Shown: positions 11,630-47,808, counted from the stretch's first letter. The stretch: DNA of 64,000 nucleotides from Candidatus Thorarchaeota archaeon (GCA_011364905.1 RDNZ01000003.1:227-64226), one strand, 5' to 3'. Numbers and translations are program-made. Notes: generated from the letters alone by a model not told the origin.

Positions 11630-12016
11630 CTATGGAGTAGTGGTTGCTTCATACTTGCTTGGACATGAGGTCAGGATTTCTGTTGCAATGAAAAGGTACT
11701 TTGATTCTATATGTCCAATGGCAACAATCTCTTGTCCATCTAGTAGGTTTGGTGGGGTACCTTGTATTTGTATCGTTATTGTATTGTTTTCTCCTTCCAT
11801 GACGAGAGTAGTATTGTCTCCTATAGTCGTAAGAGATCCTGCTTGATATGCTCCCTTCAACTGCACCTTTCGACCCATATACGACTCCGGACTCTCGACG
11901 ACTTGATCCACACTTAGGTACGGATTGACGAAGAGGTTCAGCATTGCGTATGCAACAAACCCTATTGTAGCAACCAGAATGATTGCGACAGCTGCCATGC
12001 GGGTCCTTTTGTTCAT
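11630..12016 (-). CDS. ccmE: Cytochrome c maturation haem chaperone CcmE, archaeal CxxxY variant
   Basis: 128 aa. N-terminal TM anchor, OB-fold-sized body and the C-terminal motif SCPSKYE (C118-x3-Y122, nt 11651-11665) in place of HxxxY. It lies at the end of the ccmABCD run. Confidence 0.85.
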   Translation of the reverse strand: MNKRTRMAAVAIILVATIGFVAYAMLNLFVNPYLSVDQVVESPESYMGRKVQLKGAYQAGSLTTIGDNTTLVMEGENNTITIQIQGTPPNLLDGQEIVAIGHIESKYLFIATEILTSCPSKYEATTTP

Positions 12017-14382: not shown

Positions 14383-15600
14383 CTATCCGAGTCCCATCAG
14401 ACTGATGAAGAGATCCTCTATATTGAGTACTTTGATGTTGACGTTTCGCTTTTTGACAGCATCAAGGAAGTTCAGCTTGCAGAAAACGCAGGAAGACACA
14501 ATCGTCGTGGCTCCTGTATCGAGTGCTTGATTCAACCGCCTTTCAGCCACATTGACTGCGTTCTCGCCAAATCCTGCTTTGAAACCGCCACCAGCACCGC
14601 AACAGACCGAGTTTTCCCTATTTCGTTCCATCTCAACGAATTCCATATCAGGAATACTCCTCAGGACCTCTCGCGGAGCTTCGAATACTCCAACATGGCG
14701 GCCCAGATGGCAAGGGTCATGATAGGTGACTCTTTCAGGGTAGCCACTTTTCCATTCGAGTTCTCCTTTCTTTATTTTGAGGGCGAGAAACTGGGTGAGG
14801 TGCTGCAATGAGAATGGTAGGATGCCATATCGTTCTCTATAGTACTTTGGCCAGTCTAGAGTAGTTGTACGATAGCATCCCGAACATGAGAAGACCAGAT
14901 GTTCGATACCTCGTTTTTCTATCTCCTCCACATTGTGCAGTATGAACTTCTCAACATCTAGATTACCAAGAAGCTCTTTGTCACCATCTTCTAGCTCTTC
15001 ATATATCGGGCGCGTGCATTGTCCTGTTCTGATGAGTGGACTGCAACAACAGTATTCGTCAGCGCCGAGGATCTGTGGTTCTATTCCGAAGTAATTAAGC
15101 ATACGTAACGTTGCATCAGCTATCTCTGGTCTCTTATAGGATGCAGTACATCCCACAAAATAGCCCCACTCAGAATCGTCAGATATCTTCGTGTCTGGCT
15201 TGACCCAATCGCCTCGTTTCAGTGGGTCTTCACCATAGACATTGTTGTGCTGAAACGCCATGTCTCCCATGACATGCAGCTTTCCGTATGGTCCCTTCCC
15301 CTCTTGCACAAGTTTCTTCCTGACATCCTCAATTATTCTGACATATGGGACCTTTATAGGACATCTTTCCACACATTGTTCACAGGTGCTGCACGCATAC
15401 ACTGCTCTAACAAAGCTGTCATCTATAGGCAGCTTCTTTTCTACATAGGAGCGTAAAAGCCGAAGTCTTCCGCCAGCAAAATATGCCTCGGAATGAAACT
15501 CCTCATAGCTAGTGCATGTCCATCTGCATGTTGAGCAATTACTGCACTTTACGATCATATCTGGGTCGACATCAAGTTCAGGTGTAAAGAATCTCCTCAT
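14383..15600 (-). CDS. CCG-domain Fe-S oxidoreductase (GlcF/GlpC/HdrD-like), cassette A
   Basis: 405 aa. Two ferredoxin motifs (CSNCSTCRWTC and CSTCEQCVERCP) and two CCG domains (GC..CCCSP..CSGC; HDPCHLGR..CCGAGGG..CVFC). Overlaps the upstream FAD gene by 4 nt. Confidence 0.85.
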   Translation of the reverse strand: MRRFFTPELDVDPDMIVKCSNCSTCRWTCTSYEEFHSEAYFAGGRLRLLRSYVEKKLPIDDSFVRAVYACSTCEQCVERCPIKVPYVRIIEDVRKKLVQEGKGPYGKLHVMGDMAFQHNNVYGEDPLKRGDWVKPDTKISDDSEWGYFVGCTASYKRPEIADATLRMLNYFGIEPQILGADEYCCCSPLIRTGQCTRPIYEELEDGDKELLGNLDVEKFILHNVEEIEKRGIEHLVFSCSGCYRTTTLDWPKYYRERYGILPFSLQHLTQFLALKIKKGELEWKSGYPERVTYHDPCHLGRHVGVFEAPREVLRSIPDMEFVEMERNRENSVCCGAGGGFKAGFGENAVNVAERRLNQALDTGATTIVSSCVFCKLNFLDAVKKRNVNIKVLNIEDLFISLMGLG

Positions 15601-17078
15601 CTTGACATCGCCTCCTGGTATGAAACTGGAATTTGAAGTATGTTCTTAGCGCGGCGAAGAACCACTTGCAATCTCCGGAAATACCCATTCATTGTAAACA
15701 TCAGATTCAGCCGAGTGTATGACATATTACATCGAGTCAGTTTATCTGGATTCATGAGTCCGTCTGGGTCCCATTTATTGCGTATTTCCTTGAACCGTTT
15801 GTAGTCATTCTTTTGATATCTCTTGATATACACTGTATTTTGAAGACCGAAGGTATAGAGCTCACCGCCGCCTCTATACATTGTCTTGACTAGCTTATGC
15901 AGCATTGATTTTCCTGACATGAAATGCATCCAATTTCGATGGTCTGATGGTGCAAAGACACAGAGTCGAGCCTTATTTGGCCTACCAAGAACGAGGTAGA
16001 AGCATGAATTGATCCGATATTTGCTAGCAATCTTGTACATGCGTTTTACGATTGGCCCAATATGGTCTAGTGGAATCCAGAAATTCTGCATAGATAGAGT
16101 GGGGACCTCAAGTTTAAGCTTCATCTCTACAATGAATCGGTCGTCCCAATTCTTTTCATAATAGGACTTCTGCATTTCCATGCCTTTCGCAACCTCAAAG
16201 ATGCCTCTTGCCGTCTTCAGCGATTCCTCAACCTCAGCTGTCTCTCCACTGTAGGTGACTAGAACAAAGAACAGTCCTGTTGTTTCTGGGGGCAAGCCGC
16301 CTTGAATACGCCACTCATACTCGAGATCTGTCAGCCTCAGGTAGATGGGTGGTGTCTTGGTTTTACTCAGTCGATTGACAGCATCAATTGCTCTCTCAAG
16401 GTCTTGAAAAGCAAACATCAGTCCCTCTGTAGTTTCAGGAACCGGGATGATCTTCATCTTGATTGAGGTCACAACTCCAGCAATTCCAACTGTCCCAAAA
16501 AAGGGGAGCATCTCATCTCCTGCCACTGTTTCAATTGTCCCATCTGGTCTTACAACCTCCATCTCAAACACGTTGTCAACCATTGAACCATACTTTGGTG
16601 TTCCAATACCAGCTTTTCCACCAATTGACAACCATCCTGCCAAAGTCGAAGCAACTCCACTCTGCGGTTTCACAGGAGTTGTAAATCCCTGTTTTGCCAA
16701 CTCGTTGTCCAGAATCTCCCAAACTGCTCCGGCTCCGACACGGACCCATCCCTCATCCTTGTTAATGTCCAAAATACAGTCCATTGATTTTGTGTCCACA
16801 ACGATTCCGCCTCTAGTGGGACTTGCAGATCCATAGTAGCACGTTCCACCCCCTCTAGCAACTATTGGGATCTTCTTCTTTGAAGCATATTTCAAGATTG
16901 ATGATACTTGCTCATTGGTCTTTGGCCAAGCAACATAATCTGCCAGCCATTTCTTTTTCCACCTGAAGTGATAATACGGTATACCCGTCGTGTCTCCACT
17001 TGCTGACAGGCGTTCGGACATGAGATCACTGATCCATGATACCTCAGACAACTTGGCGATTTGCTCTGTTTCACTCAT
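15597..17078 (-). CDS. GlcD-like FAD-linked oxidase/dehydrogenase (FAD_binding_4 family), cassette A, with a short amphipathic C-terminal tail
   Basis: 493 aa. IPIVARGGGTCYYG, GGIVVDT, AGWLSIGGKAGIGTPKYG, and a C-terminal ..WDPDGLMNPDK followed by about 45 extra residues. Confidence 0.85.
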   Translation of the reverse strand: MSETEQIAKLSEVSWISDLMSERLSASGDTTGIPYYHFRWKKKWLADYVAWPKTNEQVSSILKYASKKKIPIVARGGGTCYYGSASPTRGGIVVDTKSMDCILDINKDEGWVRVGAGAVWEILDNELAKQGFTTPVKPQSGVASTLAGWLSIGGKAGIGTPKYGSMVDNVFEMEVVRPDGTIETVAGDEMLPFFGTVGIAGVVTSIKMKIIPVPETTEGLMFAFQDLERAIDAVNRLSKTKTPPIYLRLTDLEYEWRIQGGLPPETTGLFFVLVTYSGETAEVEESLKTARGIFEVAKGMEMQKSYYEKNWDDRFIVEMKLKLEVPTLSMQNFWIPLDHIGPIVKRMYKIASKYRINSCFYLVLGRPNKARLCVFAPSDHRNWMHFMSGKSMLHKLVKTMYRGGGELYTFGLQNTVYIKRYQKNDYKRFKEIRNKWDPDGLMNPDKLTRCNMSYTRLNLMFTMNGYFRRLQVVLRRAKNILQIPVSYQEAMSR

Positions 17079-17090
17079 TCATACTCACCC

Positions 17091-17501
17091 CTAGGCTATG
17101 TACTGAATGTATCCAATGACGAAAACTATTGTCCAACATACTGCTGCGGTCAAGCCTGGAATTTTCGTTCTGATTCCTGAGATTCCCGTAAGAAATGCGC
17201 CAACTCCAGCTAGATAACCAATCACTCCCAATCCAATATGAATCAGGTGAAACAAGTCTGCAGCTCCAGCACTTAGCACGGTATTGGTGAGAGGCAGAAT
17301 CGCAACGACATTGACTGTTGTCAATAGTAAAGCAAGACCTGCACAGATACCATGAGTAAAGGTGTATTTTTCCCTGGAGATTTGGTATAGCAGCGTAGCT
17401 ATCCAAAGTAAGATTATCGCAGGAAGGCCTAGAATTATACTCAGGTGAATATCGCCAAACTGCAGAGCTTGAAATTGGCCGATTTGAATAGCGGTTGTCA
17501 C
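17091..17501 (-). CDS. 4-TM membrane protein with conserved histidines, homologous to the C-terminal half of the 28920-30116 protein
   Basis: 136 aa. GTG start preceded by AAGGAGGT. By eye, GLPAIILLWIATLLYQISREKYTFTHG aligns with GLPALILAYVGTALEYYDEERFTKIHG, and LFHLIHIGLGV aligns with FMHAWHVWLGI. Confidence 0.65.
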   Translation of the reverse strand: MTTAIQIGQFQALQFGDIHLSIILGLPAIILLWIATLLYQISREKYTFTHGICAGLALLLTTVNVVAILPLTNTVLSAGAADLFHLIHIGLGVIGYLAGVGAFLTGISGIRTKIPGLTAAVCWTIVFVIGYIQYIA

Positions 17502-20626: not shown

Positions 20627-21130
20627 TCATGGCCATGGAATTCCGATCCAGTCCAAGATTGGTTTCAAAATTGATGTGTGATATTCTAGTATTCCTCCAA
20701 GGGCGCCCATGATCATCATCAGTACGCCACCGACCATTATCACAATAGCATATGGGAAATAAGTGGAAGCATTGACCCATACCCTATCGCCAAGCTTTGT
20801 CCTAACAATCATGGCATAGAGAAAGATTTCAAGGGAAACAATGGACCATAGGATTTTGAAACGCAATTCTGGCGTCTGAATTATGATGTTAAGCGGATAT
20901 TCCGGCTCCATGAAACCAGTGATTACCCCAACAATCAGTCCAATGAAACCAATGATGCTTCCAACGTAGATAAAAACATCAAACTCGTGAAATATCTTTG
21001 CCAATCTAGTTCCGGGAGTGTTTATGTTATCCCTGAATAAGATCCGAAGTACAAGATTAATCAACGCCAAGGCCGCAGCGACTGTAAGGATTCCAGTGTG
21101 AAAGTGTACAAAAACAGGATGTATTGCCAT
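20627..21130 (-). CDS. DUF2231-like 4-TM membrane protein
   Basis: 167 aa. The N-terminal MAIHPVFVHFHTG matches the HPxxVHF start I associate with DUF2231 (from memory). It sits between the monohaem cytochrome and the CCG gene. Confidence 0.45.
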   Translation of the reverse strand: MAIHPVFVHFHTGILTVAAALALINLVLRILFRDNINTPGTRLAKIFHEFDVFIYVGSIIGFIGLIVGVITGFMEPEYPLNIIIQTPELRFKILWSIVSLEIFLYAMIVRTKLGDRVWVNASTYFPYAIVIMVGGVLMMIMGALGGILEYHTSILKPILDWIGIPWP

Positions 21131-21143: not shown

Positions 21144-21725
21144 CTATTTCTTCCTCCTAAGAGCGAGGTACCCAAAGATTACCAAGATCAAAGCAGTGGC
21201 AGCTGGTACTGTATACAACATCATTGTCCAAATTCCGACCAAGTCAACTGGCGGAGGGCCTGTTGTCACAGTTACACTAGGCTCACCAGTTACAGTAACA
21301 GCCACATCAAAGGAGTCTCCGAGAAGTCCAGTAGCTGCAGTCCAAATACGAATCGTACGTGACCCGTTAAGAAGAGGTGTGAATGTAACATCAACGGTAA
21401 TTTCCCCAACTGCTGCATTAGTATCATTAACTGAATTATCCTGAATGAGAGTATCTGAGATTCGGAAATAGTCGTTGTCACCCCATCCACTCTTAATTGC
21501 GACATACTCTGCTCCATTTCCTGCTTGAATCTGAAGTATGAATGGATCCCCGGTTTCAGCATTGACAGTTGAGTTTGTTGTTAATGTTAATGTGCCAGTG
21601 TTAGTGTGGCAATCCCCGCATTCAGCAGTATAATCGGGATGTGCCATAACTGAACCTGCCGCAGCGATTAGTAAAACAAGAAAGCTCAAAACCACTATGA
21701 GCTTGGTAGCATAGTTACGTTTCAT
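21144..21725 (-). CDS. Exported monohaem c-type cytochrome with a beta-rich (Ig-like) domain and a C-terminal TM anchor
   Basis: 193 aa. Signal peptide ...AAAGSVMA/HP, a single CGDCH (nt 21606-21620) about 8 residues into the mature protein, and a C-terminal hydrophobic helix followed by RRKK. Confidence 0.75.
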   Translation of the reverse strand: MKRNYATKLIVVLSFLVLLIAAAGSVMAHPDYTAECGDCHTNTGTLTLTTNSTVNAETGDPFILQIQAGNGAEYVAIKSGWGDNDYFRISDTLIQDNSVNDTNAAVGEITVDVTFTPLLNGSRTIRIWTAATGLLGDSFDVAVTVTGEPSVTVTTGPPPVDLVGIWTMMLYTVPAATALILVIFGYLALRRKK

Positions 21726-24938: not shown

Positions 24939-26276
24939 CTACTTCATATCGTGTATCATCTCTCCGGCACAAGCAATGCCGGATCTTGAGGCTGCTTCCA
25001 TTGATGCATAGTACATGCCACAATTTGCATATGCTCCTGCAACATAAAGTCCCTCTACGCCAGTCCGATTTGTCTTCAGACGCATATCCATGATTCCTGG
25101 TGGCTGTTTGAGAACCGACTTCCAGATTTTCCAGCTCTTTTTCCATGTGACCTTTTCCTTAACACCTGGAATTAGAATTTCTAGTTCATTAAGGATCTCA
25201 TCTGTTGCTTCTTCATCGCTCATTTTGAGCAGCTCTTTATCAATTCCAGTGACCGTCAGGAGAGATTCTCCAATAGGAGCTAATACACCGGAAACTCTCT
25301 TAGCTTCTGCAACGATGTTGATTTTTCTCTCTGGAACAAACGCGCCAACATTAAAATCAAGAACCCTCGATTTCAGTCCAAAGTATGCAACTGTGGAAGG
25401 TGCGTATTCGAAGTAGGCGGCCTTCTCAAGAAACTCCTTCGGCAAGTCGCTCTTTTTAACGAAGTGTGGCAACAAATCGATGGGAGTTGTAAGAACGACA
25501 GCATCTGTATCAAGGTGTTTGCTCTCTCCATCCTGTTCATAATCGACGCCAACAACTTTTCCATCTTCAATGATCACCTGGTTCACTGCGCAACTGACCT
25601 GGGGTTCGACGCCAAAGTTTCTCGCTTGCAGCATCAGAGTATATGCGACGCTACCAAGTCCACCACGTTCTGGGTACATCGCACTGAATCCGTCTTCATA
25701 TGCAAACCGGAGATGTTCGGAGTATAGATACTGTCCTGCAGAGACCTCATCAGGTTGCATGAAAGTGACAGTTTTGATTAAAGGCTCGTAAAAGTCTTGC
25801 TGGATATCTTCTGGAATGTTCTGGTCATCCGCATAATCCGAGAAGGTCATGCTATCCAGTTCCTTGAATTCCTCCTTAGACCTTTTGATGTTGTTCTGAA
25901 CTAGCATACCAAGTCTAGCTCTATCTGCGACTGGGAGTAGTCCGAATTTTGCGAGCTCAACTGCTGACTTGCGAATGATGTGCCGCTCGCCACCCTTAAG
26001 CCAGACTGCGCCTTCGCCTACGGTGGTCATTCTGACTCCGCTTCTCTCAAGAATAGGAATCAATGATTTGAAACCACCAACGAAGAAGTGCAATCCCTGA
26101 TCAAAGACGTACCCTGACTCAGTGTAAGACCTAGCACGTCCACCTACTGTCTTTTCTTTCTCCAAAATCGTGCATCGGGCTTTGAGACCTTTCAATTCCA
26201 GCGCGCAGCTGAATCCTGAAATCCCACCGCCAACGATTACGACACGAGTGCCTTTTTCTTTGCTCATAATTGACAA
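24939..26276 (-). CDS. FAD/NAD(P)-binding amine-oxidase / phytoene-desaturase-family oxidoreductase
   Basis: 445 aa. The N-terminal dinucleotide fold VVIVGGGISGFSCALEL..ILEKEKTVGGRA and the C-terminal GLYVAGAY are typical of the CrtI/HemY/amine-oxidase superfamily. Confidence 0.7.
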   Translation of the reverse strand: MSIMSKEKGTRVVIVGGGISGFSCALELKGLKARCTILEKEKTVGGRARSYTESGYVFDQGLHFFVGGFKSLIPILERSGVRMTTVGEGAVWLKGGERHIIRKSAVELAKFGLLPVADRARLGMLVQNNIKRSKEEFKELDSMTFSDYADDQNIPEDIQQDFYEPLIKTVTFMQPDEVSAGQYLYSEHLRFAYEDGFSAMYPERGGLGSVAYTLMLQARNFGVEPQVSCAVNQVIIEDGKVVGVDYEQDGESKHLDTDAVVLTTPIDLLPHFVKKSDLPKEFLEKAAYFEYAPSTVAYFGLKSRVLDFNVGAFVPERKINIVAEAKRVSGVLAPIGESLLTVTGIDKELLKMSDEEATDEILNELEILIPGVKEKVTWKKSWKIWKSVLKQPPGIMDMRLKTNRTGVEGLYVAGAYANCGMYYASMEAASRSGIACAGEMIHDMK

Positions 26277-26302: not shown

Positions 26303-27427
26303 CTACTCCTCGACTTGTGATGCTTGGGCTTTATCAAGAATAAGCTCGTCGAGCTGAATCACTTCTAGATCAGTGTCCCTTGCGTTATAGCTTAAGTTCT
26401 TGTAGCAAGAGATACAGGTCGTGATAATTCCATCGACTCCTAATTCCTCTGCCTCTTTTACTCGTCGCCTTCCAACTGATTCTGAAAGATCAGGGTCTAG
26501 TACTGTGAGAAAACCACCACAACAGTTTGAGTTTGCGCGGTTGTTTTTCATCTCTACTAATTCGAGACCCGGAACTGCTTTGATAATCTCTCTTGGAGGC
26601 TCGTAGATACCAAGAGCTCTTCCTAAATGGCAGCTATCATGGAATGTGTATTTTCCTTCCATCTCTTCGAAAGTCAACACTCCATTACGGACCATGTCTG
26701 CTAAGACCTCAACAGTATGTAGAATCTTGATATCGAAGTTTGGTATGATCTTCGGGTAATGTTCAGCAAGCGTGCCATAGCACCCGCCGCAGCTAGTAAT
26801 TATGTGCTCAACGCCTGCCTTCTTGAACATCTCATAGTTCTTACGGACCACTCTCTCGAAGCCTTCGTCATCCCCTGCCCAGTAATTGAATAGACCACAA
26901 CAAACCTCGCTAGGGACATATCCTGCTTTTACACCCAATTTGTGAAGCATATCAACGACAGATTCAGGTTGATCTGGATACCAGAATGAACCCATGCAAC
27001 CTGAGAAGATTGCTGAGTTTGATTCAGGTGGTAGTTCCAAATCCTCAGCCCAAACAGTTCGGTCCTCTGATTCATATCCAATGAATGGGGTCCCTTCCTT
27101 TTCAATCCAGTCAAGCACTTTCTGAAGAGGTTCTGACATCTCTGCTCCAGTTCTCAGAAGCTGGCCCTTGGCTTGATGCCAGATGTCTGTTACAGGAACT
27201 CCAGCTGGACAGATTGCTTCACAACGTCGGCAGTCTGCGCAATAGAGTCTTTGCAGAAGCTCTGGCGGAGGATTCCTCATTTTAGTAGCGTAAGCTCGTA
27301 GAGCTCTAAGTTTTCCACCTGGACTATCCAGTTCAGACTTTAATTCAATGTACATTGGACAAGTGTCTCTGCAGTAGTTGCATGATCCGCAGTGTCGTAG
27401 TTCCTCTGCTAAGTTATCGATATTCAT
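26303..27427 (-). CDS. CCG-domain Fe-S oxidoreductase (GlcF/HdrD-like), cassette D
   Basis: 374 aa. CGSCNYCRDTCP, CADCRRCEAICP, VCCGLFN..CGGC, and HDSCHLGR..CCGGF..CISC. Confidence 0.85.
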   Translation of the reverse strand: MNIDNLAEELRHCGSCNYCRDTCPMYIELKSELDSPGGKLRALRAYATKMRNPPPELLQRLYCADCRRCEAICPAGVPVTDIWHQAKGQLLRTGAEMSEPLQKVLDWIEKEGTPFIGYESEDRTVWAEDLELPPESNSAIFSGCMGSFWYPDQPESVVDMLHKLGVKAGYVPSEVCCGLFNYWAGDDEGFERVVRKNYEMFKKAGVEHIITSCGGCYGTLAEHYPKIIPNFDIKILHTVEVLADMVRNGVLTFEEMEGKYTFHDSCHLGRALGIYEPPREIIKAVPGLELVEMKNNRANSNCCGGFLTVLDPDLSESVGRRRVKEAEELGVDGIITTCISCYKNLSYNARDTDLEVIQLDELILDKAQASQVEE

Positions 27428-27436: not shown

Positions 27437-28930
27437 TCACTTCCCCACATATCTTGATAGCCTCCGGAACGCGGTGGCTAGTAAGAACAGAAAATCAATC
27501 CTCCTGAACGAAGTCATGCAGTCCGTCACTTTGTCTGGGTTCATGACTCCTTCGGGGTCCCACTTCGCTTTCGCTTCTTTCATTCTTGACAGACGATCAG
27601 GGTAGGCTCGTGACATATAGATTGAGTTCTGCAGTCCAATTGTGTATGGTCCACCACCCAGTTTGATGGCTTTCTTCATCATCTTATGAAGAATTCCCTT
27701 ACTCGCGATGAACTTCAGATAATGTTCTGCATCAATCATAGCCATTAACTCAAGTCGCATTTCCTCTGGTGTTCCAAGCATGCCAAACCAAAGGGCTGGG
27801 ATCTTATGTGATTCTCGATATGATTCGTAGGATGAAAGCATCTCATACACTTTGTCGATAGGCATCCAGAACTCCTGGAACATCAATGTTTCAGTATGTT
27901 CCTTTGGATTGAACTCAACATCATATCTGAGATCCCAATCCTTCTCTGAGAATTCATCTCCCAGGTAAGTACCATCATAGTTCCCTGTTATCGATTCTAA
28001 TTCACTAAGTGGAAGGAAATCTGGTTCATCGATATAGGTGACGGTGAGTACGTACCTGCCTTTTTCCATTGGATTACTGTACTTCTGCAATTCACTATCA
28101 GCGATATTGAGGTACAATGGCTTTTTCTCGAGTTTCGCCATTTCCATCATCGAGATGCAGAGTCTTTCTAAGTCATGAAAGCAGTAACTGAAAGTCTTGT
28201 ATCCACTTGGAATTTCATGTACTTTTAGAGTGGCCTCAACAATGATGCCCAGTATGCCATAGGATTGCAGAAACAGGTCAATATCATTGCCCTCAACGGT
28301 CTGGAGCTTACCATCGCTTCTCATCACCGACAGAGATGTTGTGTGCTCTCTGAGAGACCCGTAGAATGGTGTGCCAATCCCGCCTCTTCCTCCGCAAGCG
28401 ATCCACCCACCTATTACAGCAGACTTTGCACTTGAGGGGTAGATGCCCAAGGTCAATCCTTCCTTCTCGAGTTCATTCCCCAATCTTTCGAAAGTTACAC
28501 CAGGTTCTACTCGAACAAACATGGATTTTTTGTTGATCTCAATGACTTTATCCATAGTCTTCATGTCGAGTGATATGCCTCCATGCGTTGGGCTTGACGA
28601 ACCCATACAGCTCGAAGCACCCCCTCGCGGGATAATAGGCAACTTGTGCTGGTGTGCGACCTTTAGAACCTCTTGTATCTCATTCACGTTTTCAACCCGG
28701 ACAACATAATCTGCAAGGTATTTGCCTTTCCATCTATAGTGATACTGAGGAAGAGATGAAGGGTCTCCACTGTATACAACTCTCTCGAGCTCAGAATCTG
28801 AAACTCGTTCATCTCCAACAATCTCCTTGAGTTTGTCAAGTATTGAAACTTCCGTTGTGACTGGCGTAGGTTCTGGTTTGTTTGTAGTTTCTTGTTTCAT
28901 TTCGGCCATCTCAATCGCCTCACGGTACAA
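27437..28930 (-). CDS. GlcD-like FAD-linked oxidase, cassette D, with a short amphipathic C-terminal tail
   Basis: 497 aa. LPIIPRGGASSCMGSSSPTHGGISLDM and YPSSAKSAVIGGWIACGGRGGIGTPFYG; it ends ..WDPEGVMNPDKV plus about 30 residues. The first Met overlaps the upstream gene by 11 nt, and Met8 or Met11 are alternative starts. Confidence 0.85.
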   Translation of the reverse strand: MYREAIEMAEMKQETTNKPEPTPVTTEVSILDKLKEIVGDERVSDSELERVVYSGDPSSLPQYHYRWKGKYLADYVVRVENVNEIQEVLKVAHQHKLPIIPRGGASSCMGSSSPTHGGISLDMKTMDKVIEINKKSMFVRVEPGVTFERLGNELEKEGLTLGIYPSSAKSAVIGGWIACGGRGGIGTPFYGSLREHTTSLSVMRSDGKLQTVEGNDIDLFLQSYGILGIIVEATLKVHEIPSGYKTFSYCFHDLERLCISMMEMAKLEKKPLYLNIADSELQKYSNPMEKGRYVLTVTYIDEPDFLPLSELESITGNYDGTYLGDEFSEKDWDLRYDVEFNPKEHTETLMFQEFWMPIDKVYEMLSSYESYRESHKIPALWFGMLGTPEEMRLELMAMIDAEHYLKFIASKGILHKMMKKAIKLGGGPYTIGLQNSIYMSRAYPDRLSRMKEAKAKWDPEGVMNPDKVTDCMTSFRRIDFLFLLATAFRRLSRYVGK

Positions 28931-30116
28931 ATATCTCTCCCAGGTAGATCCCCATTATTCCTAGTATTGTCCAAAGCACCACAGCGGGTAATCCAAGGTT
29001 GCATGTCTTCCATCCACCGAGGTGTGTGATGAACGCTAGTGTTCCAAGAATCACGCTTATGATACCAAGCCACACATGCCAGGCATGCATGAATTGCAGC
29101 ATGTTACTAATGTTCACCAGATACGCAGGGTTCATGACACTCCAAGTTCCAGCAGGTTCCATAAAGAGACTAATGACGTTAATTGATGTCAAAATGTACG
29201 CCAAACCTAACATCATACCATGTATCTTGGTGAATCGCTCTTCATCATAGTATTCGAGGGCAGTCCCGACATAGGCGAGAATCAAGGCTGGTAAGCCAAT
29301 ATACCATCCATAGTGAAACTGAGGAAGAATCAGAGGCTGAACTGGAATCTGACCGACTGTGTACGAACCTATGCCACTCACAGACTCTCCGGCTGAGTTT
29401 CCAGCAACTATACGCCATTGTACTTCTACGTCCTTGCCTAGTCCCGGAATTTCGCCTGTGTACACATTAGCTTGTGTCGTTTCTGTCATGGAAATATTGG
29501 TCCAGCTTGCCCCAGAATCAGTACTGTATTGAAGTCTGACATAATCAACTCCAAGCGGTGATGTGACCTCGACCGTGACAGTGAATGGCTCTTGTGCCTT
29601 TGGAACATCAACACTTGTAGAGGGTTGTCCAATCGCAGGGCCTTCACCTGCTTGTGCTACATTGATAGTAATAGAATGGCTATCGCCATGAGGCGGATCT
29701 TGTACGGCATACACTGTGAGAGTATAGGTGCCAGCAAAACCTGGAGCAGTAATATTGTAAATTACGTGTATCACCTTAGAAGTAGCATCTAGATCCGAGG
29801 CATCGTTATCATCTACAAGTCCGTTCGGACTTGGATATACAATTGTGAATTGACCGTTGTCATCCACATCACTGGGTATTTTCAAAACGAAATTAGGTGG
29901 ACTTGCTTGTCCTGTGGCTTGCACATCCAACTGGAATGTCTGTCCTGAATCCACATCGATTGATGATGTCGCTGTAATCGCAATCCCAGTTGGATCATCG
30001 TGACAAACACTGCAATCGTTTTGGTCTGCAGGATTAGCCATCACATGTCCTGAGGCCAGAACAACCAACAAAAAGACTGAAGCAAGAACTATACCTATCT
30101 TGGTCCTTCGATTCAT
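28920..30116 (-). CDS. Fusion protein: exported monohaem c-type cytochrome + Ig-like domains + His-bearing 4-TM module
   Basis: 398 aa. Signal peptide ..LASGHVMA/NP, a single CSVCH (nt 30000-30014), about 220 aa of beta-rich sequence, then a C-terminal 130-aa membrane domain homologous to the 17091-17501 protein. Confidence 0.75.
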   Translation of the reverse strand: MNRRTKIGIVLASVFLLVVLASGHVMANPADQNDCSVCHDDPTGIAITATSSIDVDSGQTFQLDVQATGQASPPNFVLKIPSDVDDNGQFTIVYPSPNGLVDDNDASDLDATSKVIHVIYNITAPGFAGTYTLTVYAVQDPPHGDSHSITINVAQAGEGPAIGQPSTSVDVPKAQEPFTVTVEVTSPLGVDYVRLQYSTDSGASWTNISMTETTQANVYTGEIPGLGKDVEVQWRIVAGNSAGESVSGIGSYTVGQIPVQPLILPQFHYGWYIGLPALILAYVGTALEYYDEERFTKIHGMMLGLAYILTSINVISLFMEPAGTWSVMNPAYLVNISNMLQFMHAWHVWLGIISVILGTLAFITHLGGWKTCNLGLPAVVLWTILGIMGIYLGEIFVP

Positions 30117-30401
30117 GTAGTGTAGTCCCCGATTCTTATATCGTCGGTCTTATCCCGGATATATCTCCCGGATAACGAACTCGGGGGTAGTCGACCCTGC
30201 TTAAAATCTTACGGAATGAAGAAGTGCACTATCGTTTAGACTGCTCGAAGGTTACAACTTACGTCCAAATAACCATGAATTAGTAGAAACTGTAACCAGT
30301 CATGTCATTCACTACTACAGATATTATATATGCGGATACAATACCAAATCATCCGTAACCATTCTATTTCAATTTGTAAGAGTAAGCTAACAATTTCAAG
30401 A

Positions 30402-30426
30402 GAAAAAGGGAACATATTTTTATTAG
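30402..30426 (+). promoter_or_regulatory. Candidate BRE/TATA element for the multihaem cytochrome gene
   Basis: GAAAAAGGGAACATATTTTTATTAG: a purine-rich stretch followed by an AT box, about 40-60 nt upstream of ATG 30465. Confidence 0.3.
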
Positions 30427-30464
30427 GCTGTTTGTGGAAAAATACTAACCCTATTCTAGGGACA

Positions 30465-31835
30465 ATGGTGAAAAAACCAATGGTGTATTACACTGAAGAG
30501 ACCCCAGGGGTTAACAGGCGATTGGTTGCAGGTTACTACCTCTTCCTTTGCCTAATTGGTTTCGCCATTCTCTTAGGACCTACGGGATCTGGAATACCTA
30601 TCACCGTTATTGATGATAGAGTACGTGAGGCGCATGAATCAGCTTATCCGTATCTTGGAAACGGAACCGTTGAAGGATGTGGCGAGTGCCACCCTGACGA
30701 GTACATGTACTGGAATATGACACTCCATACAGGTATTGGTGTTTGGCTAAATGAAACATCACAAACTGTAACAGTGTTCGGTCACCGTGAGCGGACATAC
30801 CTGGAGTTCAACGCCAGCTGTGCTCAATGTCACGCAATTGGCTGGACACCCGAAAGGAATGTCACAGATTGGCCAAACACACACGATGGTTTTGGCACCA
30901 ATTGTTTGACATGTCATAGCACTACATCGCCGTACTTTTCAACCAATGGCACAGTCTGTGAAGGCTGCCACGTTGGACATGAAGGTACTTTCGTTGACAA
31001 TTGGGTAAATTCGGCTCATGCCAACTCACTAACAGATCTCAGAGCTAGCAGCCATGCATCATCATCATGCATGCACTGTATGTCGGGCGAAGGATTCGCA
31101 ACTCAAACAGATGTGGATCTAAACGGAGATTATAACTCGATAAATTGCCCGGCTTGCCACTCTGTCCACTCGCCAGATGTGGTGAATCCAGCCCAGATAC
31201 GCGCTGTCAATTCCACAGAGCTTTGTGGTACATGTCACTCTGGAACTCGCTACCCAATGTACGATGTATTCAGTGAAGGACCACATGCGCTCACAGGAGT
31301 TGTCGAGTGTACGTCCTGTCATGGCTATCAGCAAGGTGCTCACGGAGCTGTAATGAACCACACATTTCTGGTTATACCAGAAGATGCATGTGGTCAGAGC
31401 ATGGATTGCCACGAAGGCCAGGAACAGTGGGCTATGAGCCAACTTGAAGAGATTCAGTCATCATTTGACTCGTTGGTAACTGATTTCACTACCGAGGCAG
31501 ACGCTTTCAGTACAATAGTAATGGACTACAATGCTACAGCTGGTGCAGATTACACCCTTACAAGCTATGTGATGGGCGTAGTTGACGATGCTTCTAGCAC
31601 TGTGAGCTATTATCAGGCTGATCGTTCCTCTGGTATTCATGATCCAACAGGGACATTCAGTGAACTGAATTCAGCATTCAGAGACCTTCTCAATGCTGAG
31701 GCGTACTACTACGAGAATCTCCCCGCCGGTGGTGGTGGTGGATTCCCTGCAAGCACTCTAATCATTGTTGGTGGAGCTGCTGGTGGTATTGTTGTTGGAC
31801 TGCTCCTAGGAGTATTGGTTGGCAGACGTCGATAG
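30465..31835 (+). CDS. Multihaem c-type cytochrome (7 canonical CxxCH plus variant motifs), membrane-anchored, with a NrfA/octahaem-family-like C-terminal helical region
   Basis: Start re-assigned to MVKKPMVYY... with signal anchor LFLCLIGFAILLG; the track start at 30330 adds 45 non-hydrophobic codons. Motifs: CGECH, CAQCH, CLTCH, CEGCH, CPACH, CGTCH, CTSCH, plus CMHCM and CGQSMDCH. The C-terminal SSGIHDPTGTFSEL recalls the GFHxPxE block of NrfA-type enzymes. A Gly-rich stalk, a TM helix and RRR follow. Confidence 0.85.
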   Translation: MVKKPMVYYTEETPGVNRRLVAGYYLFLCLIGFAILLGPTGSGIPITVIDDRVREAHESAYPYLGNGTVEGCGECHPDEYMYWNMTLHTGIGVWLNETSQTVTVFGHRERTYLEFNASCAQCHAIGWTPERNVTDWPNTHDGFGTNCLTCHSTTSPYFSTNGTVCEGCHVGHEGTFVDNWVNSAHANSLTDLRASSHASSSCMHCMSGEGFATQTDVDLNGDYNSINCPACHSVHSPDVVNPAQIRAVNSTELCGTCHSGTRYPMYDVFSEGPHALTGVVECTSCHGYQQGAHGAVMNHTFLVIPEDACGQSMDCHEGQEQWAMSQLEEIQSSFDSLVTDFTTEADAFSTIVMDYNATAGADYTLTSYVMGVVDDASSTVSYYQADRSSGIHDPTGTFSELNSAFRDLLNAEAYYYENLPAGGGGGFPASTLIIVGGAAGGIVVGLLLGVLVGRRR

Positions 31836-31993: not shown

Positions 31994-34171
31994 ATGAGAC
32001 AGAAAATCCTCTTCACCGCAATATTTGCCGTCGTGATGTTGAATGCACTAGCTTCGGGTGCGAACATCACTGTTAGTCCGAAGTATACTGTAAACAGGGT
32101 AGACAATGCCAGAACAACTGTTTTGTCACAGGAACAGGAGTACAACATATCTTCATACAAAAACTACTCGGATGCAACTCTAGCCATAATGATGGCCAAG
32201 CACCTGAACATAACGACTGGTGTGGTTTTCCATTCAGTCACTGGGAATTTGTCGGCATATTCTGTAGAAACCAGTCTATCAACTTATTATTGGGCGATTG
32301 CGGCTCTGTCAAGGGCATACACCGAAACAAACAATCAGACTTACAGCATCGTTATGAGCCGGATTGCCAATAAGATGGTTAGTCTTTTCGAAGACCCTAC
32401 CTATCCCGGCTTTTATGTAAACGAGTTCTCCGATCTTGAGTTGAGGCAGACTAAGAGACCTGGTGTCCAAGCCTATGCCTACTGGGCACTTGAAATTGCA
32501 GAATCAACCAATTCCTCTCTTGATTTCACAGAGGAAAAAGAGAGTGCACTGACGTGCGTAACAGATATGCTCTATGATTCCATTTATGGTGGCTTCTTCT
32601 TCTACACGATGAGAAACGGTTCGTTAACTGTACCATCGACTTTCTCTGAGGTTTACCCTAATGATGGAAAAAGACTGGACCATCTTGCTCTTGCGACAAT
32701 GCTCCTTTATGATGTTGGTCAGTCTACAGGGAACACTACGTTGGTTGAGATGGCTAATCGTTCTATTGGATTCATGCTTCGCTACATGCCGTACTACTAT
32801 AATATGGAATTCGTGGGACTGAAGCTCGCAGTGAGCCGAAGTGGTGGGTCTCTCACAGTAGATGTGGGAGATAGAGTTGCATATTCCGTTGTTACAGACA
32901 TCAATGCTATAGCGATTAGTGCTCTAGTCAAGGGGTATGGAGTAACAGGAAATGCTACCTATTTAGACTCAGCAAACCAAGTCTTTGAAGCATTATTTAC
33001 AAACAACTGGGACGGTGTCAATGGAGGGTGGTTCTCAGAGGTGGTTGATGGTGAACCATATGATCCTCTTGATGATGAAGATGTGAAGTATTACAAATAC
33101 ACAGAGATTCAATTCCAGATGATCATGGCATTGGAAGACTTGTACGAAACCACAGGTTCAATTTATCCCATCAGGATTGCTATTGACACTTTGGAGCTAG
33201 TGCTTTCAAACTTATGGGATTTAGAGGATGAAGGCTTTGTAAGTAACTCCAACCAGGTCTGGGAGGTTTTCGCCGAAGACTGGGAGATTCACTATACGAC
33301 TGTACAAGGACAGGCCTTTATTGGTCTGGAACGCGTTTGGAGCTATGGATTACCAATTGTTAGTCGGGTGAGAGTGACTCCAACAAATCCCCGACCTGAA
33401 GATAACGTCTACATTTCTGCAACAGCGCTTGATGATGATGGAATTGAATCTGTCTATGTAAACTACTCTCTGAGAGTAGGAAGCAACATAACTCATGGTA
33501 TTCTCGCATTGTCCCCGCATCCTACTATTAATGGATTGTACAACAGCTCAATTGGGACTCTACCTGATCAATGCGCGGTGAACTTTGAGGTTGTGGCTAA
33601 CGATACAACAGGTCAAGTTTTCGTAGCCGGAATATACTTCTTCATCGTGCGTGCAGACATCTTTGCTCCCAGCATTGATCTATACGCCATTTACCCCACA
33701 AGTGAGGTACGCGTCGGCGATGATGTTGTTGTGGATATGGTGACAACTGAGTTTCCGCCACATAGCTCTACAAACTCGTGCGAGATTTGGTGGAGAGTGA
33801 ATGCTGGCGCATACACACCAGAGAACATGACCCCAATCGGATTTGATGGCACTAGCATCATCTGGCGATTCGAACTCGGGCAGTTCCAGAAAGATGATAA
33901 AGTTGCATTCTTCTGCCTAGTCACTGATGAATCTGGAAATGTTGGAGAGAGCCGGTTGTTCCTCCTCACTATTCTTGGACCCAAAATCAATCTTACACCA
34001 TTCTCAGCTTTCCAGATAGTGGCTACGATTGGTCTAGTTGCCGCACCTGGAGTTGGCTATGCCTACACAAAGATGCGAAAAGGAGGTTACAAAGAGGCAC
34101 AGCGTGAAGGAAAGAAGGAGGCACGCAAACGGGCAAGACGACGAGGTTCGAGGAGGAGGAGCAGAACTTAG
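31994..34171 (+). CDS. Large exported, probably N-glycosylated protein with a helical-repeat (alpha/alpha-toroid-like) region, Ig-like C-terminal domains, a TM anchor and a basic tail
   Basis: 725 aa. Signal peptide MRQKILFTAIFAVVMLNALASG, many NxS/T sequons, a C-terminal helix IVATIGLVAAPGVGYAY, and a KR-rich tail. No catalytic motif recognised. Confidence 0.6.
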   Translation: MRQKILFTAIFAVVMLNALASGANITVSPKYTVNRVDNARTTVLSQEQEYNISSYKNYSDATLAIMMAKHLNITTGVVFHSVTGNLSAYSVETSLSTYYWAIAALSRAYTETNNQTYSIVMSRIANKMVSLFEDPTYPGFYVNEFSDLELRQTKRPGVQAYAYWALEIAESTNSSLDFTEEKESALTCVTDMLYDSIYGGFFFYTMRNGSLTVPSTFSEVYPNDGKRLDHLALATMLLYDVGQSTGNTTLVEMANRSIGFMLRYMPYYYNMEFVGLKLAVSRSGGSLTVDVGDRVAYSVVTDINAIAISALVKGYGVTGNATYLDSANQVFEALFTNNWDGVNGGWFSEVVDGEPYDPLDDEDVKYYKYTEIQFQMIMALEDLYETTGSIYPIRIAIDTLELVLSNLWDLEDEGFVSNSNQVWEVFAEDWEIHYTTVQGQAFIGLERVWSYGLPIVSRVRVTPTNPRPEDNVYISATALDDDGIESVYVNYSLRVGSNITHGILALSPHPTINGLYNSSIGTLPDQCAVNFEVVANDTTGQVFVAGIYFFIVRADIFAPSIDLYAIYPTSEVRVGDDVVVDMVTTEFPPHSSTNSCEIWWRVNAGAYTPENMTPIGFDGTSIIWRFELGQFQKDDKVAFFCLVTDESGNVGESRLFLLTILGPKINLTPFSAFQIVATIGLVAAPGVGYAYTKMRKGGYKEAQREGKKEARKRARRRGSRRRSRT

Positions 34172-34192: not shown

Positions 34193-36307
34193 ATGGATAT
34201 TGGTACAATTCTTTTAATTGCTGCTGCCGCAGTTGGAGTTTTAGACGCACTCATAATGCTGCTGGGACCAAGAATCAAAGGATACGAAAACTACTCATTT
34301 GTTGCATCGTTAATTGGCTTCTTTGCCAGTACTGCTGCAATTGTTTGGCTAGGTTTTCTGATTTTCACGAATCAGTTTCAGTATGTATATGTAACACAGG
34401 TCACTGAGAGAAGTGCTAGTGTATTGCTCAAGATATCAGGTCTTTGGGCTGGTCAATCAGGTTCTCTGGTTTTTTGGACGTTCTTGTCCTTCACGTTATA
34501 CTTTGGTTTCCGCGCTTTGACCCGTGGGTATGAGGATGACAAACTTGTTTATCGTGCAGCAATAATCATGGTAGCAGAGTCTGTCATTATTGCAGTGAAC
34601 ACTCTTGTTGCTAGACCATTTAGACTGATAGAAGGAACAATTCCGTCTGACGGGTTCGGTCTGAATCCGCTTCTCTCAACTCTTCTGAATGTGATTCATC
34701 CTCCACTCATCTTCATCTCATATGCGCTCATACTTGTACCTTTCTCAGTCAAGTTGGCAGGATTCACTCTCAGTAGTGAAGACCGTAATCAGGATCCAAT
34801 CCCTGTCGTGAATGCGTATGTTCGTTTCATGACAATACTTGCTTGGATTTTGCTCTCTTGTGGCATTGCGATTGGTGGATATTGGGCTTACACGGTTCTT
34901 GGATGGGGCGGCTATTGGGCTTGGGACCCCGTAGAAACAACGTCATTGATTCCATGGTTGCTTATCACACTCTACTATCATGCTAGACCGACGTTGCGCA
35001 AGAATGATGTAATCCGCGACTCGTTCCTTGTGATGGCGTACATCACTGTTCTCTTTGCCACATGGACAACAAGAAGTGGAGTTCTCTCATCAGTTCACGG
35101 ATTTGCCATAAGCCTTGTCAGCTGGACAATGCTAGCAACACTCGTATCCAACTTGATAATTGGTGTAGGACTTGCATTTTACTCTGGCTTTAAAGACATG
35201 ACAGATGATGATCAATTGTCTGGACCTGGATTCTTTGACACCTCTAATGTTCGAACATTCTCCATCAAAGTCGCACTCATCGGGTTGCTGGTTGTCGCGG
35301 CGACCTCAACAATTGGAGTCGCTCTTCCAGCCACTTACAATGTTGGAATAGCGATATTTGATCCCACACATCTTTCGGACAGGATGATTGGAATGGACAC
35401 AGAGTTCTTCAGGATTGGTTTCTATGCCTCATGTGCCTTCCTCATTGCCTCCGCATTCTATTGTATGCGAACGGATTTCCTCACTTATCGGAGACGAGGA
35501 ATCATCTTGATAGTTGTCTTTGGAATTGGGGCAATACTCGCATTCATCACTGCCTTTGGAAATATAATCCTAGAATTTCTTGGAATTGGTTGGCGCTTCG
35601 GACCAATGCCAACTTACTACTGGCCTGCGAATCTCTTGATTCTTCCAGCAGCTGCAGGTATCGTATTTCTAGCAGTTGCATTCGCCCGATTACTAGCTGG
35701 AAAAGAACGGATTGCCAGCACACGTCACATTGGTCGTCTAATGCTTCACCTGGGATTGATCATCTTGCTTCTCGGAGTTTTCATGAGTGAGAATGTTGTC
35801 TACGAATCAAACTCTACTTACCTCACAGCTCAGATGAATGAAGTCGCTCCGAATTTGTATATTCGAGTTGCAGATATCGACTTGCAGTCTTGGGTCGATT
35901 CATCAAACTTCCACATGGTTGTGGAAATTAATGTGGTCAGGAATACGACTCAGGGCTGGCGGGTAATCGGACTGGGTTATACTACTGTCACGGGCGATCC
36001 AAACTGGAATATGATCAGCCATACGGTCTATCTGGACTCAACGGCTTTGAGGGATGTATTCGTAGCTGTGACTGGATTTTCGCAAGGCAGTGAAGGTCTT
36101 CAGGTGACTATTCATACAAAGGTACTGCCACTCATCTCATTCGTCTGGATTGGCGCCGTATTCATGATTCTGGCAATGGTTCCTATGTCTTGGATAGAGG
36201 TGCAATCTCTACTGAAGTCAATGCATGGAAAAGAAACGCATCTCTACGAAGATGATGAAAATGACGAGCATTTTGAAGTATCTAAGGATGTGATTCCAGA
36301 AAACTAA
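34193..36307 (+). CDS. ccmF: Cytochrome c haem lyase / haem-handling protein CcmF
   Basis: 704 aa polytopic protein with the WWD-type motif WGGYWAWDPVETTSLIPWL. Confidence 0.9.
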   Translation: MDIGTILLIAAAAVGVLDALIMLLGPRIKGYENYSFVASLIGFFASTAAIVWLGFLIFTNQFQYVYVTQVTERSASVLLKISGLWAGQSGSLVFWTFLSFTLYFGFRALTRGYEDDKLVYRAAIIMVAESVIIAVNTLVARPFRLIEGTIPSDGFGLNPLLSTLLNVIHPPLIFISYALILVPFSVKLAGFTLSSEDRNQDPIPVVNAYVRFMTILAWILLSCGIAIGGYWAYTVLGWGGYWAWDPVETTSLIPWLLITLYYHARPTLRKNDVIRDSFLVMAYITVLFATWTTRSGVLSSVHGFAISLVSWTMLATLVSNLIIGVGLAFYSGFKDMTDDDQLSGPGFFDTSNVRTFSIKVALIGLLVVAATSTIGVALPATYNVGIAIFDPTHLSDRMIGMDTEFFRIGFYASCAFLIASAFYCMRTDFLTYRRRGIILIVVFGIGAILAFITAFGNIILEFLGIGWRFGPMPTYYWPANLLILPAAAGIVFLAVAFARLLAGKERIASTRHIGRLMLHLGLIILLLGVFMSENVVYESNSTYLTAQMNEVAPNLYIRVADIDLQSWVDSSNFHMVVEINVVRNTTQGWRVIGLGYTTVTGDPNWNMISHTVYLDSTALRDVFVAVTGFSQGSEGLQVTIHTKVLPLISFVWIGAVFMILAMVPMSWIEVQSLLKSMHGKETHLYEDDENDEHFEVSKDVIPEN

Positions 36308-36417
36308 ACAAACCAAATGTGCTAACTAATGGTCGAGCTTCTGGTTCGACCAACCACTCTTATTTCTCAAGAAGGGTTAATAGATGTCGCTTGTTTAGCC
36401 AGATAAGACAGCTCTGG

Positions 36418-37620: not shown

Positions 37621-37621
37621 A

Positions 37622-38677: not shown

Positions 38678-38773
38678 CTAGTTGTTTTGTTCCAAATCGT
38701 AAGCACCTTAAAGCAATTACCGTTCTTATTGCAAACGTCATAGTAAAGGTAAGCCTTTTCTGCATGACGAATT

Positions 38774-46840: not shown

Positions 46841-46842
46841 AG

Positions 46843-47807: not shown

Positions 47808-47808
47808 G

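Follow-up and report, generated by a model that had tools for sequence, protein, structure and literature searches.

Introduction

Membrane cytochromes that partner CCG iron-sulfur proteins, and fusion cytochromes that unite b-type and c-type domains, are known kinds of redox protein. Here we describe a protein of 398 amino acids (aa), the target of this study, which is encoded in a 64,000-nucleotide (nt) stretch of DNA from Candidatus Thorarchaeota archaeon (GCA_011364905.1, RDNZ01000003.1:227-64226; the whole stretch is hereafter called the window) and combines a haem-c attachment motif and two beta-sandwich domains, predicted to be extracellular, with a C-terminal module of four transmembrane (TM) helices. 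Since the target always lies beside genes for a cytoplasmic flavin and iron-sulfur (FeS) dehydrogenase, it is probably the membrane subunit that passes the electrons of that enzyme across the membrane. The reading that we favor, and to which we give a slightly better than even chance, is that the target would be the membrane subunit of a 2-hydroxyacid-dehydrogenase-like complex and would link FeS clusters in the cytoplasm to a haem c outside the cell, probably by way of a His-ligated haem b. No description of the TM family, its fusion to an immunoglobulin (Ig)-like domain with an N-terminal haem c, the pairing with a GlcD-like flavoprotein or the restriction to Asgard archaea was found in the literature that could be searched.

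In gene arrangement the target resembles the HdrE/DsrM/NarI-type cytochromes b (HdrDE, DsrMK and HmeCD), which likewise have a small membrane subunit encoded beside an HdrD-like Fer4_8 and CCG protein, histidines at both membrane faces and a predicted transfer of electrons between the membrane and a cytoplasmic FeS/CCG protein. It differs from them in that the module has four helices rather than five, three family-wide histidines and no match to NarI or any other Pfam b-cytochrome family, and in having a fused, predicted extracellular haem-c domain and an FAD_binding_4 dehydrogenase among its partners. Those partners have the FAD_binding_4 plus FAD-oxidase_C and Fer4_8 plus CCG architecture of the D-2-hydroxyacid dehydrogenases of the GlcDEF, Dld-II and YdiJ type, for which we know of no dedicated integral-membrane or cytochrome subunit. 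Geobacter CbcL is presumably comparable as a single polypeptide that joins a membrane His module to exported haem c upstream of multihaem cytochromes. CbcL reportedly oxidizes quinol and carries nine haems c together with a dihaem b domain of the HydC/FdnI type, whereas the TM family of the target is unrelated, its putative haem c is single and sits on an Ig-like domain, and it has cytoplasmic FAD/FeS proteins as dedicated partners. Finally, eukaryotic proteins of the CYBDOM type (DOMON plus cytochrome b561) share with the target a trans-membrane four-helix core and an extracellular beta-sandwich haem domain, but the extracellular haem of the target would be c-type and N-terminal rather than a DOMON haem b.

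Results and Discussion

Architecture and conserved partners of the target

The first-pass annotation of the window had described a 398-aa protein with a signal peptide and a single CSVCH about 8 residues past the cleavage site, followed by a beta-rich stretch and a C-terminal 4-TM domain; open reading frame (ORF) and motif analysis confirmed the former, and an AlphaFold2 model the latter. The CSVCH lies 8 residues past the likely cleavage site between VMA and NP and is the sole CxxCH of a protein that contains only three cysteines. In the model, which was built on 33 homologs and has a mean predicted local distance difference test (pLDDT) score of 84.5, two beta-sandwich domains (about aa 46-154 and 178-253) precede four TM helices (aa 274-290, 292-319, 339-366 and 375-395). 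Foldseek with the full-length model returned generic tandem Ig/FN3/Big_2-CBM56 matches only. The first beta domain has weak 'choice-of-anchor V' matches, and the second is Asp-box and CBM56-like, with weak Reelin, CBM56 and Asp-box signals in profile scans.

Among 185,579 species, each represented by one genome, the 400-aa fusion is present in 33, which, where named, are Thorarchaeota, Promethearchaeota or Hermodarchaeota. At all 33 loci the gene immediately downstream, often overlapping the stop codon of the fusion, encodes an ortholog of the FAD_binding_4/FAD-oxidase_C flavoprotein of the window (hereafter the FAD protein, for flavin adenine dinucleotide). The CCG gene comes next at 28 loci, the remaining five ending within the FAD gene, and an amine-oxidase-like gene follows the CCG gene at nearly all loci that reach far enough. 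Conservation is higher in the partners than in the fusion, with ortholog identities of 72-93% for the CCG protein, 73-91% for the amine oxidase and 55-77% for the FAD protein, against 43-71% for the fusion.

The same association recurs around distant members of the family. The FAD gene directly downstream of one of them (locus L001) encodes a protein 31% identical to the FAD partner in the window (E=3e-72), and only this gene fits on the contig. At L004 the FAD and CCG genes are adjacent to the distant member and CcmF, C, B and A genes flank the locus, at L006 a single 892-aa FAD::Fer4_8::CCG protein resembling Dld-II and YdiJ takes the place of the pair, at L007 the two genes are adjacent but divergently oriented, and at L008 FAD and CCG genes lie downstream of a member that consists of the TM module only. 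This adjacency, conserved across divergent genomes and invariant among the orthologous loci, strongly supports a partnership of the target with the FAD and CCG proteins. The identity of the partners can be given at family level only: the FAD protein scores 128 bits against NCBIfam GlcD, for which the cut-off is 568, and the CCG protein has family-level NCBIfam matches to TfrB, DsrK and HdrB.

A small Asgard family with conserved histidines

The first-pass annotation had aligned the 4-TM domain by eye with the whole of a 136-aa protein encoded elsewhere in the window. BLASTP bears this out, since aa 254-389 of the target match aa 7-130 of the smaller protein with 34% identity (E=8e-17), a sequence similarity that is far beyond chance. 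The xHG histidine (H299) and the HxxH pair (H344 and H347) are common to the two proteins, as had been noted, and H268 is a fourth shared histidine that was absent from the earlier list (H19 of the paralog, at the outer end of TM1). The paralog has Gly at the position of H365 and Lys at that of C372.

A word-indexed search returned 139 homologs of the fusion, nearly all of them full length at ~400 aa and the closest up to 94% identical, and 64 homologs of the stand-alone 4-TM protein. A hidden Markov model of the TM module found 57 proteins at E≤1e-3 among 1.84 billion cluster representatives, and a profile search of a 5.8-billion-protein set with the TM-module alignment gave, among the matches listed, only close Thorarchaeota fragments. 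All named fusion homologs come from metagenome-assembled genomes of Thorarchaeota, Promethearchaeota, Odin-, Hermod- or Hodarchaeota. Distant members are Asgard wherever a name or context exists: one has a cluster mate named Promethearchaeota, and Arf/Ras/Roc GTPase genes lie near those at L004 and L006. The single member with a label outside the Asgard archaea is P0155, a close homolog of the stand-alone protein that is labelled Thermoplasmata. Judged from these searches, the 4-TM module is a tiny family that is essentially Asgard. Most of its distant members are proteins of 280-310 aa in which a signal peptide and an N-terminal Cys-His motif precede a single beta domain and the 4-TM module, and some are TM-only, occasionally with additional N-terminal helices.

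Conservation was read from an alignment of 33 fusions (43-85% identity) and a diverse TM-module alignment of 51 members (down to ~20-25% identity). In the fusions, H268, H299, H344, H347, H365 and C372 are all invariant, as are the predicted cytoplasmic loops YYDEE (289-293) and GWKTCN (368-373), and the TM module with its cytoplasmic loops is far better conserved than the extracellular domains. Across the 51 members, H299 and H347 remain invariant, H268 is present in at least 90% and H344 in about three quarters, so the histidines on whose conservation the first-pass proposal of a haem b or quinone site depended are indeed retained in distant homologs. H365 and C372 are limited to the 400-aa clade, other members having Gly and Lys/Arg there. 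TM3 carries an unbroken stripe of small residues at i+3/i+4 spacing (H347-G351-G/S354-G358-A361-G/H365-G368), TM1 and TM2 have similar stripes, and T310 and N313 are nearly invariant. Such a stripe on a TM helix is linked to porphyrin packing in b-type cytochromes.

The orientation of the protein is predicted from three features. Lys and Arg residues of the target occur before the core of the signal peptide and in loops 1 and 3, with none in loop 2 or at the C-terminus; the extracellular part is acidic (28 Asp/Glu against 6 Lys/Arg); and sequons average ~4 in that part against 0.3 in the TM module, N207-x-S/T being kept in 33 of 33 fusions. Together these place the haem-c domain outside the cell and the conserved loops inside. 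H268, H344 and H347 would then lie at the outer ends of TM1 and TM3, and the inner ends of TM2 and TM3 would hold H299 and H365, respectively. The FAD and CCG partner proteins lack signal peptides, so that the cytochrome domain and its partners are predicted, from charge, signal peptides and sequons, to be on opposite sides of the membrane, an arrangement without which the earlier proposal would have failed.

The haem-c motif and the extracellular domain

C35, C38 and H39 are invariant in the 33 fusions (numbered on the target), although the spacing between the two cysteines varies (CX2 in 18, CX4 in 13 and CX5 in 2). This conserved CXnCH motif, the predicted export and the Ccm genes in the window mark the proteins of the target clade as putative c-type cytochromes. 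In the extracellular domain of 38 members, H39 is present in 100%, C38 in 91%, P29 in 92% and D103 and D108 in 97%. M210 is invariant in the extracellular part of the 33 fusions, and its invariance is confined to the 400-aa clade.

P29 (within target aa 27-29, nt ~30030-30038) is the second residue of the predicted mature protein and precedes the Cys-His by 9-12 residues. Cytochrome f shares with the target this X-Pro start, a haem-c motif near the mature N-terminus of a beta-sandwich and a C-terminal membrane anchor; in cytochrome f the alpha-amino group of Tyr1-Pro2 is the sixth haem ligand. By this analogy it is possible to speculate that the extracellular haem of the target is ligated by the mature N-terminus. 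No sequence match to cytochrome f was found, and none appeared in the Foldseek search with the full-length model.

Each half of the target has a paralog in the window. In addition to the stand-alone 4-TM protein, a 193-aa protein that the first-pass annotation had missed carries a signal peptide, a CGDCH motif, a beta domain and, at its C-terminus, a TM anchor, and matches the N-terminal half of the target with 29% identity over 168 aa (E=1e-12). At L004, an 895-aa surface protein (L004:5210-7897), encoded directly upstream of the distant member P0203, has a signal peptide, 'CGSGCGAH' near its N-terminus, at least 8 Ig-like repeats and a TM anchor at its C-terminus; it is possibly related to the extracellular domain, with an altered motif.

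Relation of the TM module to known families

The first-pass annotation was unable to assign the TM module to a named family, and the same holds after database searches: neither the target nor its stand-alone paralog has a significant match to this module in Pfam, NCBIfam or PDB, and no transporter family, which would have spoken against a redox role, was matched in the Pfam scans. Comparison with cytochrome b-type families (NarI, DUF families and others), which that annotation had recommended, gave no significant match by Foldseek, Pfam or PDB and only sub-threshold similarity to DUF420 and cytochrome b561. NarI is absent from the per-protein Pfam tables (E≤1; for the target and the stand-alone protein, E≤0.01) and from the 25 families listed for the scan of 51 members at E≤5.

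DUF420 and cytochrome b561 are both four-helix, haem-related families. DUF420 (PF04238) was matched below threshold by 7 of the 51 members, with a best E-value of 6.8e-5 and no match to the target itself. In the four of the seven that were inspected, the module covers profile positions 2-127 of 130 from end to end, and the best of the inspectable matches, at 21 bits against a Pfam cut-off of 30.5, falls short of membership. Cytochrome b561 (PF03188) was matched below threshold by nine of the 51 (best E=0.021, 15.5 bits against a cut-off of 23), again not by the target, and five of six inspected matches share one register, with TM1-TM3 on profile positions about 26-43 through 130. Whereas b561 proteins have four histidines on four consecutive helices, the conserved histidines of the module lie on TM1, TM2 and TM3, with none on TM4. 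Both similarities are therefore best treated as leads rather than memberships. DUF420 is a 4-TM family whose characterized member, CtaM, is needed for active aa3 oxidase by a mechanism that is unknown (PMC8239418, PMC4958251). CtaM of Bacillus and Staphylococcus is like the module in being a four-TM protein of ~130 aa, but it is an aa3-oxidase assembly factor without a known cofactor, has another genomic context and lacks an extracellular domain (PMC8239418, PMC4958251).

Two other candidates were set aside. A relationship of the module to the DUF2231-like (PF09990) protein of the window was rejected (hhalign probability 1.2%; BLASTP not significant), and the Foldseek matches of a TM-only model, in which b561, STEAP and a designed dihaem bundle stand far down the list, are those of a generic four-helix bundle and were not taken as evidence.

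Proposed electron path and alternatives

In the reading that we favor, the target, the FAD_binding_4 flavoprotein, the CCG protein and the amine-oxidase-family flavoprotein would form an Asgard-specific oxidoreductase of three or four components. A 2-hydroxyacid-type substrate would reduce the FAD of the GlcD/D-lactate-dehydrogenase-like flavoprotein, and electrons would pass through the HdrD/GlcF-like CCG protein, with two predicted [4Fe-4S] clusters, for which the conserved cytoplasmic loops of the module would be the docking site. The electrons would cross the membrane on haem b, held at an outer site by H268 and H347 (H344 being close by) and at an inner site by H299, joined in the 400-aa clade by H365; in other clades a partner protein or the second subunit of a dimer would have to supply the other inner ligand, unless the site is five-coordinate or absent. 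From there the electrons would reach the covalent haem c of the extracellular beta-sandwich and move on to the heptahaem cytochrome encoded next to the target, which is a possible acceptor, or to an external one. That both domains bind haem, which substrate is used and which way the electrons flow are all inferred from sequence.

A more specific version, which we regard as doubtful, is that the target is a lineage-specific Asgard single-polypeptide wire, made of a new four-helix haem-b fold and an Ig-like cytochrome c, that couples 2-hydroxyacid oxidation to extracellular multihaem cytochromes. In this doubtful version the haem c may be ligated N-terminally as in cytochrome f, and single-Cys attachment may be tolerated in relatives. 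In the usual models, Asgard archaea live by fermentation or syntrophy and have to shed reducing equivalents, and scenarios in which eukaryotes arose through syntrophy hinge on the way in which they achieve this. If the wire exists, it would be a route for extracellular or interspecies electron transfer in the closest archaeal relatives of eukaryotes. More generally, a complex of the kind proposed would give an Asgard lineage a concrete path of electron export (or import), beside Ccm genes and a heptahaem cytochrome, and would bring with it a new membrane redox family as well as a cytochrome c of an unusual, Ig-like kind.

Several observations weigh against the transfer of electrons through haem b to an extracellular haem c. 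Canonical bis-His dihaem binding requires four histidines, and only three (H268, H299 and H347) are family-wide; the second histidine of the inner site, H365, occurs in the 400-aa clade alone and is Gly elsewhere, including in the stand-alone paralog of the window. Profile searches of PDB with two family alignments (A2 and A4) gave no hits at E≤10, and a single-sequence search gave nothing relevant. In Foldseek, the best match of the TM-only model (pLDDT 79.5) was to the cofactor-free four-helix part of cytochrome oxidase subunit III, at E=0.34. The existence of TM-only members without an extracellular haem means that the module must also work with another acceptor. As to the extracellular domain, none of its Met, His or Lys residues is conserved across the 38 members as a candidate sixth haem ligand. 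Distant relatives often lack the first Cys, so that the motif becomes HxxCH, xxxCH or CxCH, and three of them have no Cys in it at all (TTHHS, CEDGHS and EGAHS); such variants occur, for example, in P0185, P0191, P0203, P0192, P0219 and P0209. Because the CxxCH decays in this way, the term cytochrome c is secure for the 400-aa clade and not for the whole family. A motif with one Cys could reflect single-thioether attachment by archaeal Ccm, or non-covalent haem. P0203 has 'ACH', yet Ccm genes flank its locus. Of the interpretation offered in the first-pass annotation, a conduit built on haem b or a quinone site, the conserved histidines, the predicted placement of the partners on opposite sides and the lack of a transporter match thus still stand, whereas a significant match to a b-type cytochrome did not materialize.

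The lack of any b-cytochrome family match in the PDB profile searches and Foldseek also lends weight to the alternative that the 4-TM module is a haem-free site for quinone or another lipid-soluble carrier, which we nevertheless consider unlikely. On this account His, Thr and Asn residues would form a quinone/quinol pocket, the module would anchor the FAD/CCG enzyme, and the extracellular haem c would be reduced by quinol at the outer His cluster or be accessory. The TM-only members, which would be plain dehydrogenase:quinone anchors, do exist as paralogs without an extracellular haem (in the window and at L008), and the nearly invariant T310 and N313 are polar and mid-membrane. The complex-I-like operon in the window calls for a carrier of some kind in the membrane, and the related FAD/CCG enzymes GlcDEF, Dld-II and YdiJ reduce quinones. 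Nevertheless, three histidines at helix ends on both faces and a TM3 that is lined from end to end by small residues are a better fit for haem packing than for a single quinone pocket, the window yielded no identifiable genes for quinone biosynthesis, and fusion to an extracellular haem domain argues for electron transfer through the membrane.

A second alternative keeps the architecture of our preferred reading and reverses the flow, the extracellular haem c taking external electrons inward to the CCG protein; this we regard as improbable. The donors would be the cytochromes of a partner, or reduced minerals or humics by way of the heptahaem protein, and the CCG protein would reduce a cytoplasmic disulfide or 2-oxoacid in a charge-separating, energy-conserving redox loop like that of HdrDE. 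HdrD and DsrK, both CCG proteins, act as reductases that receive electrons from haem b in the membrane, the family-level NCBIfam matches of the CCG partner (to TfrB, DsrK and HdrB) are in keeping with such a role, and inward electron movement together with proton uptake from the cytoplasm would build membrane potential. Although direction is not readable from sequence, the likeness of the FAD/CCG architecture to D-2-hydroxyacid dehydrogenases (GlcDEF, Dld-II and YdiJ) suggests outward flow, the FAD_binding_4 partner resembling, by its match to the GlcD family, enzymes that are oxidative, and no external donor system was identified.

Finally, it is also improbable that the module has no redox function of its own and serves as a DUF420/CtaM-like assembly or haem-handling protein, or simply as a membrane dock, under a surface domain for adhesion, S-layer-like assembly or carbohydrate binding whose Cys-His binds metal or nothing, for although the best family hint is DUF420 (below the Pfam cut-off; CtaM being an oxidase assembly factor), the extracellular folds are generic Ig/CBM56-like ones, the CxxCH is reduced to CH or lost in distant members and no distal haem ligand is conserved, the operon link to FAD/FeS proteins holds in 33 of 33 genomes and in the distant relatives examined, the motif Cys and His residues are invariant in the target clade despite overall identities of 43-85%, Ccm genes co-localize with the gene, and conservation within the protein is highest in the cytoplasmic loops, as would fit docking of a redox partner.

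Genomic setting of the target in the window

The target heads a co-directional minus-strand array, from 30116 down to 11630, of four cassettes (D to A) and Ccm genes (Table 1). Each cassette pairs a GlcD-like FAD_binding_4/FAD-oxidase_C protein with an HdrD/GlcF-like Fer4_8 and 2xCCG protein, and the membrane element is different each time. In cassette D it is the target fusion, and the amine-oxidase-like flavoprotein is an additional member; in cassette C it is a C-terminal TM tail on the FAD protein; in cassette B it comprises a split cytochrome c, the DUF2231-like membrane protein and a TM tail on the FAD protein; and in cassette A it is the stand-alone 4-TM protein. The FAD proteins beside the two 4-TM modules (cassettes A and D) are more similar to each other (36% identity, 327 bits) than to any of the other paralogs and are distinct from the FAD clade of B, C and E. 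CcmA, B, C and E genes lie directly downstream of the cassettes in the same direction, and the CPSKY of the CcmE is what we take to be the archaeal CxxxY variant (not HxxxY), also found in some sulfate reducers.

Table 1. Positions of the target, its domains and surrounding genes, counted from the first letter of the window.
Feature	Position	Strand	Basis and remarks
Haem-c/4-TM fusion gene (target)	28920..30116	(-)	ORF call, alignment, model; 398 aa
Signal peptide of target, aa 1-27 (MNRRTK, hydrophobic core, VMA site)	30036..30116	(-)	Hydropathy/charge; model helix 3-23
CSVCH haem-c attachment motif of target, aa 35-39	30000..30014	(-)	Motif scan, alignment
Predicted extracellular part of target, two Ig-like beta-sandwich domains (aa ~40-155 and ~170-255)	29352..29999	(-)	Model, Foldseek, profile signals
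4-TM module of target, aa 262-398	28923..29333	(-)	BLASTP, alignments; conserved loops YYDEE and GGWKTCN
FAD_binding_4/FAD-oxidase_C (GlcD/Dld-like) dehydrogenase, cassette D	27437..28930	(-)	Pfam/NCBIfam, synteny; TTG 28930 overlaps target stop
Fer4_8 + 2xCCG iron-sulfur protein (HdrD/GlcF-like), third operon gene	26303..27427	(-)	Pfam/NCBIfam, synteny
Amine-oxidase-family (PF01593) flavoprotein, fourth operon gene	24939..26276	(-)	Pfam, synteny
Stand-alone haem-c/beta-sandwich paralog, cassette B	21144..21725	(-)	BLASTP, motif scan; 193 aa
His-bearing membrane protein, weak DUF2231 match, paired with split cytochrome of cassette B	20627..21130	(-)	Pfam
Stand-alone 4-TM paralog, cassette A	17091..17501	(-)	BLASTP; 136 aa; H19, H50, H85, H88
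FAD_binding_4 dehydrogenase of cassette A	15597..17078	(-)	Pfam, paralog comparison
Fer4_8 + CCG protein of cassette A	14383..15600	(-)	Pfam
CcmA	13610-14299	(-)	Pfam
CcmB	12902-13600	(-)	Pfam
CcmC	12164-12832	(-)	Pfam
CcmE, CPSKY	11630-12016	(-)	Pfam, motif
Heptahaem cytochrome c, 7 CxxCH, C-terminal tail TM-anchor-like	30330..31835	(+)	Motif scan, synteny
CcmF-like cytochrome c assembly protein	34193..36307	(+)	Pfam

On the other side of the target, the heptahaem gene is the divergent neighbor of the fusion both in the window and in 14 orthologous loci, which belong to the closer clade, and a PNPOx/DUF7530 pair stands in its place at most distant-clade loci. In the window, the corresponding genes lie ~10 kb from the target: a DUF7530 plus PNPOx-like protein (40349-41635) and an ORF (39868-40344) whose counterpart at L003 is PNPOx-like, both on the minus strand. 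Since orthologs of this pair are directly upstream of the fusion in 11 distant-clade loci, a functional link is suggested. Between the heptahaem cytochrome and CcmF is a 725-aa protein (31994-34171 (+)) with weak GlcNAc 2-epimerase and C5-epimerase matches.

A fifth pair consists of a CCG gene (41679-42905 (-)) and a gene for a FAD_binding_4/FAD-oxidase_C::NuoB (Oxidored_q6) fusion (43118-45058 (+)). The latter is the first gene of a complex-I-like operon that continues with NuoA, J, C, D and further genes (46373-58082 (+)), so that the membrane element tied to this pair is NuoB with a complex-I-like arm. The same FAD::NuoB fusion is found beside Nuo genes in Thorarchaeota CP070761.1 (L003), which suggests that the input module is here a flavin dehydrogenase in place of NuoEFG. 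Genes for a geranylgeranyl reductase, a polyprenyl synthetase and a UbiA-family prenyltransferase are clustered at 36319-39853, and a UbiA gene is also directly upstream of the TM-only member at L008. A role of this trio in quinone synthesis was considered, and archaeal lipid synthesis was judged likelier. Finally, the window encodes a full five-domain MutS (8151-10751 (-)) and an EutA-like protein with a 200-aa N-terminal extension (2946-4988 (-)).

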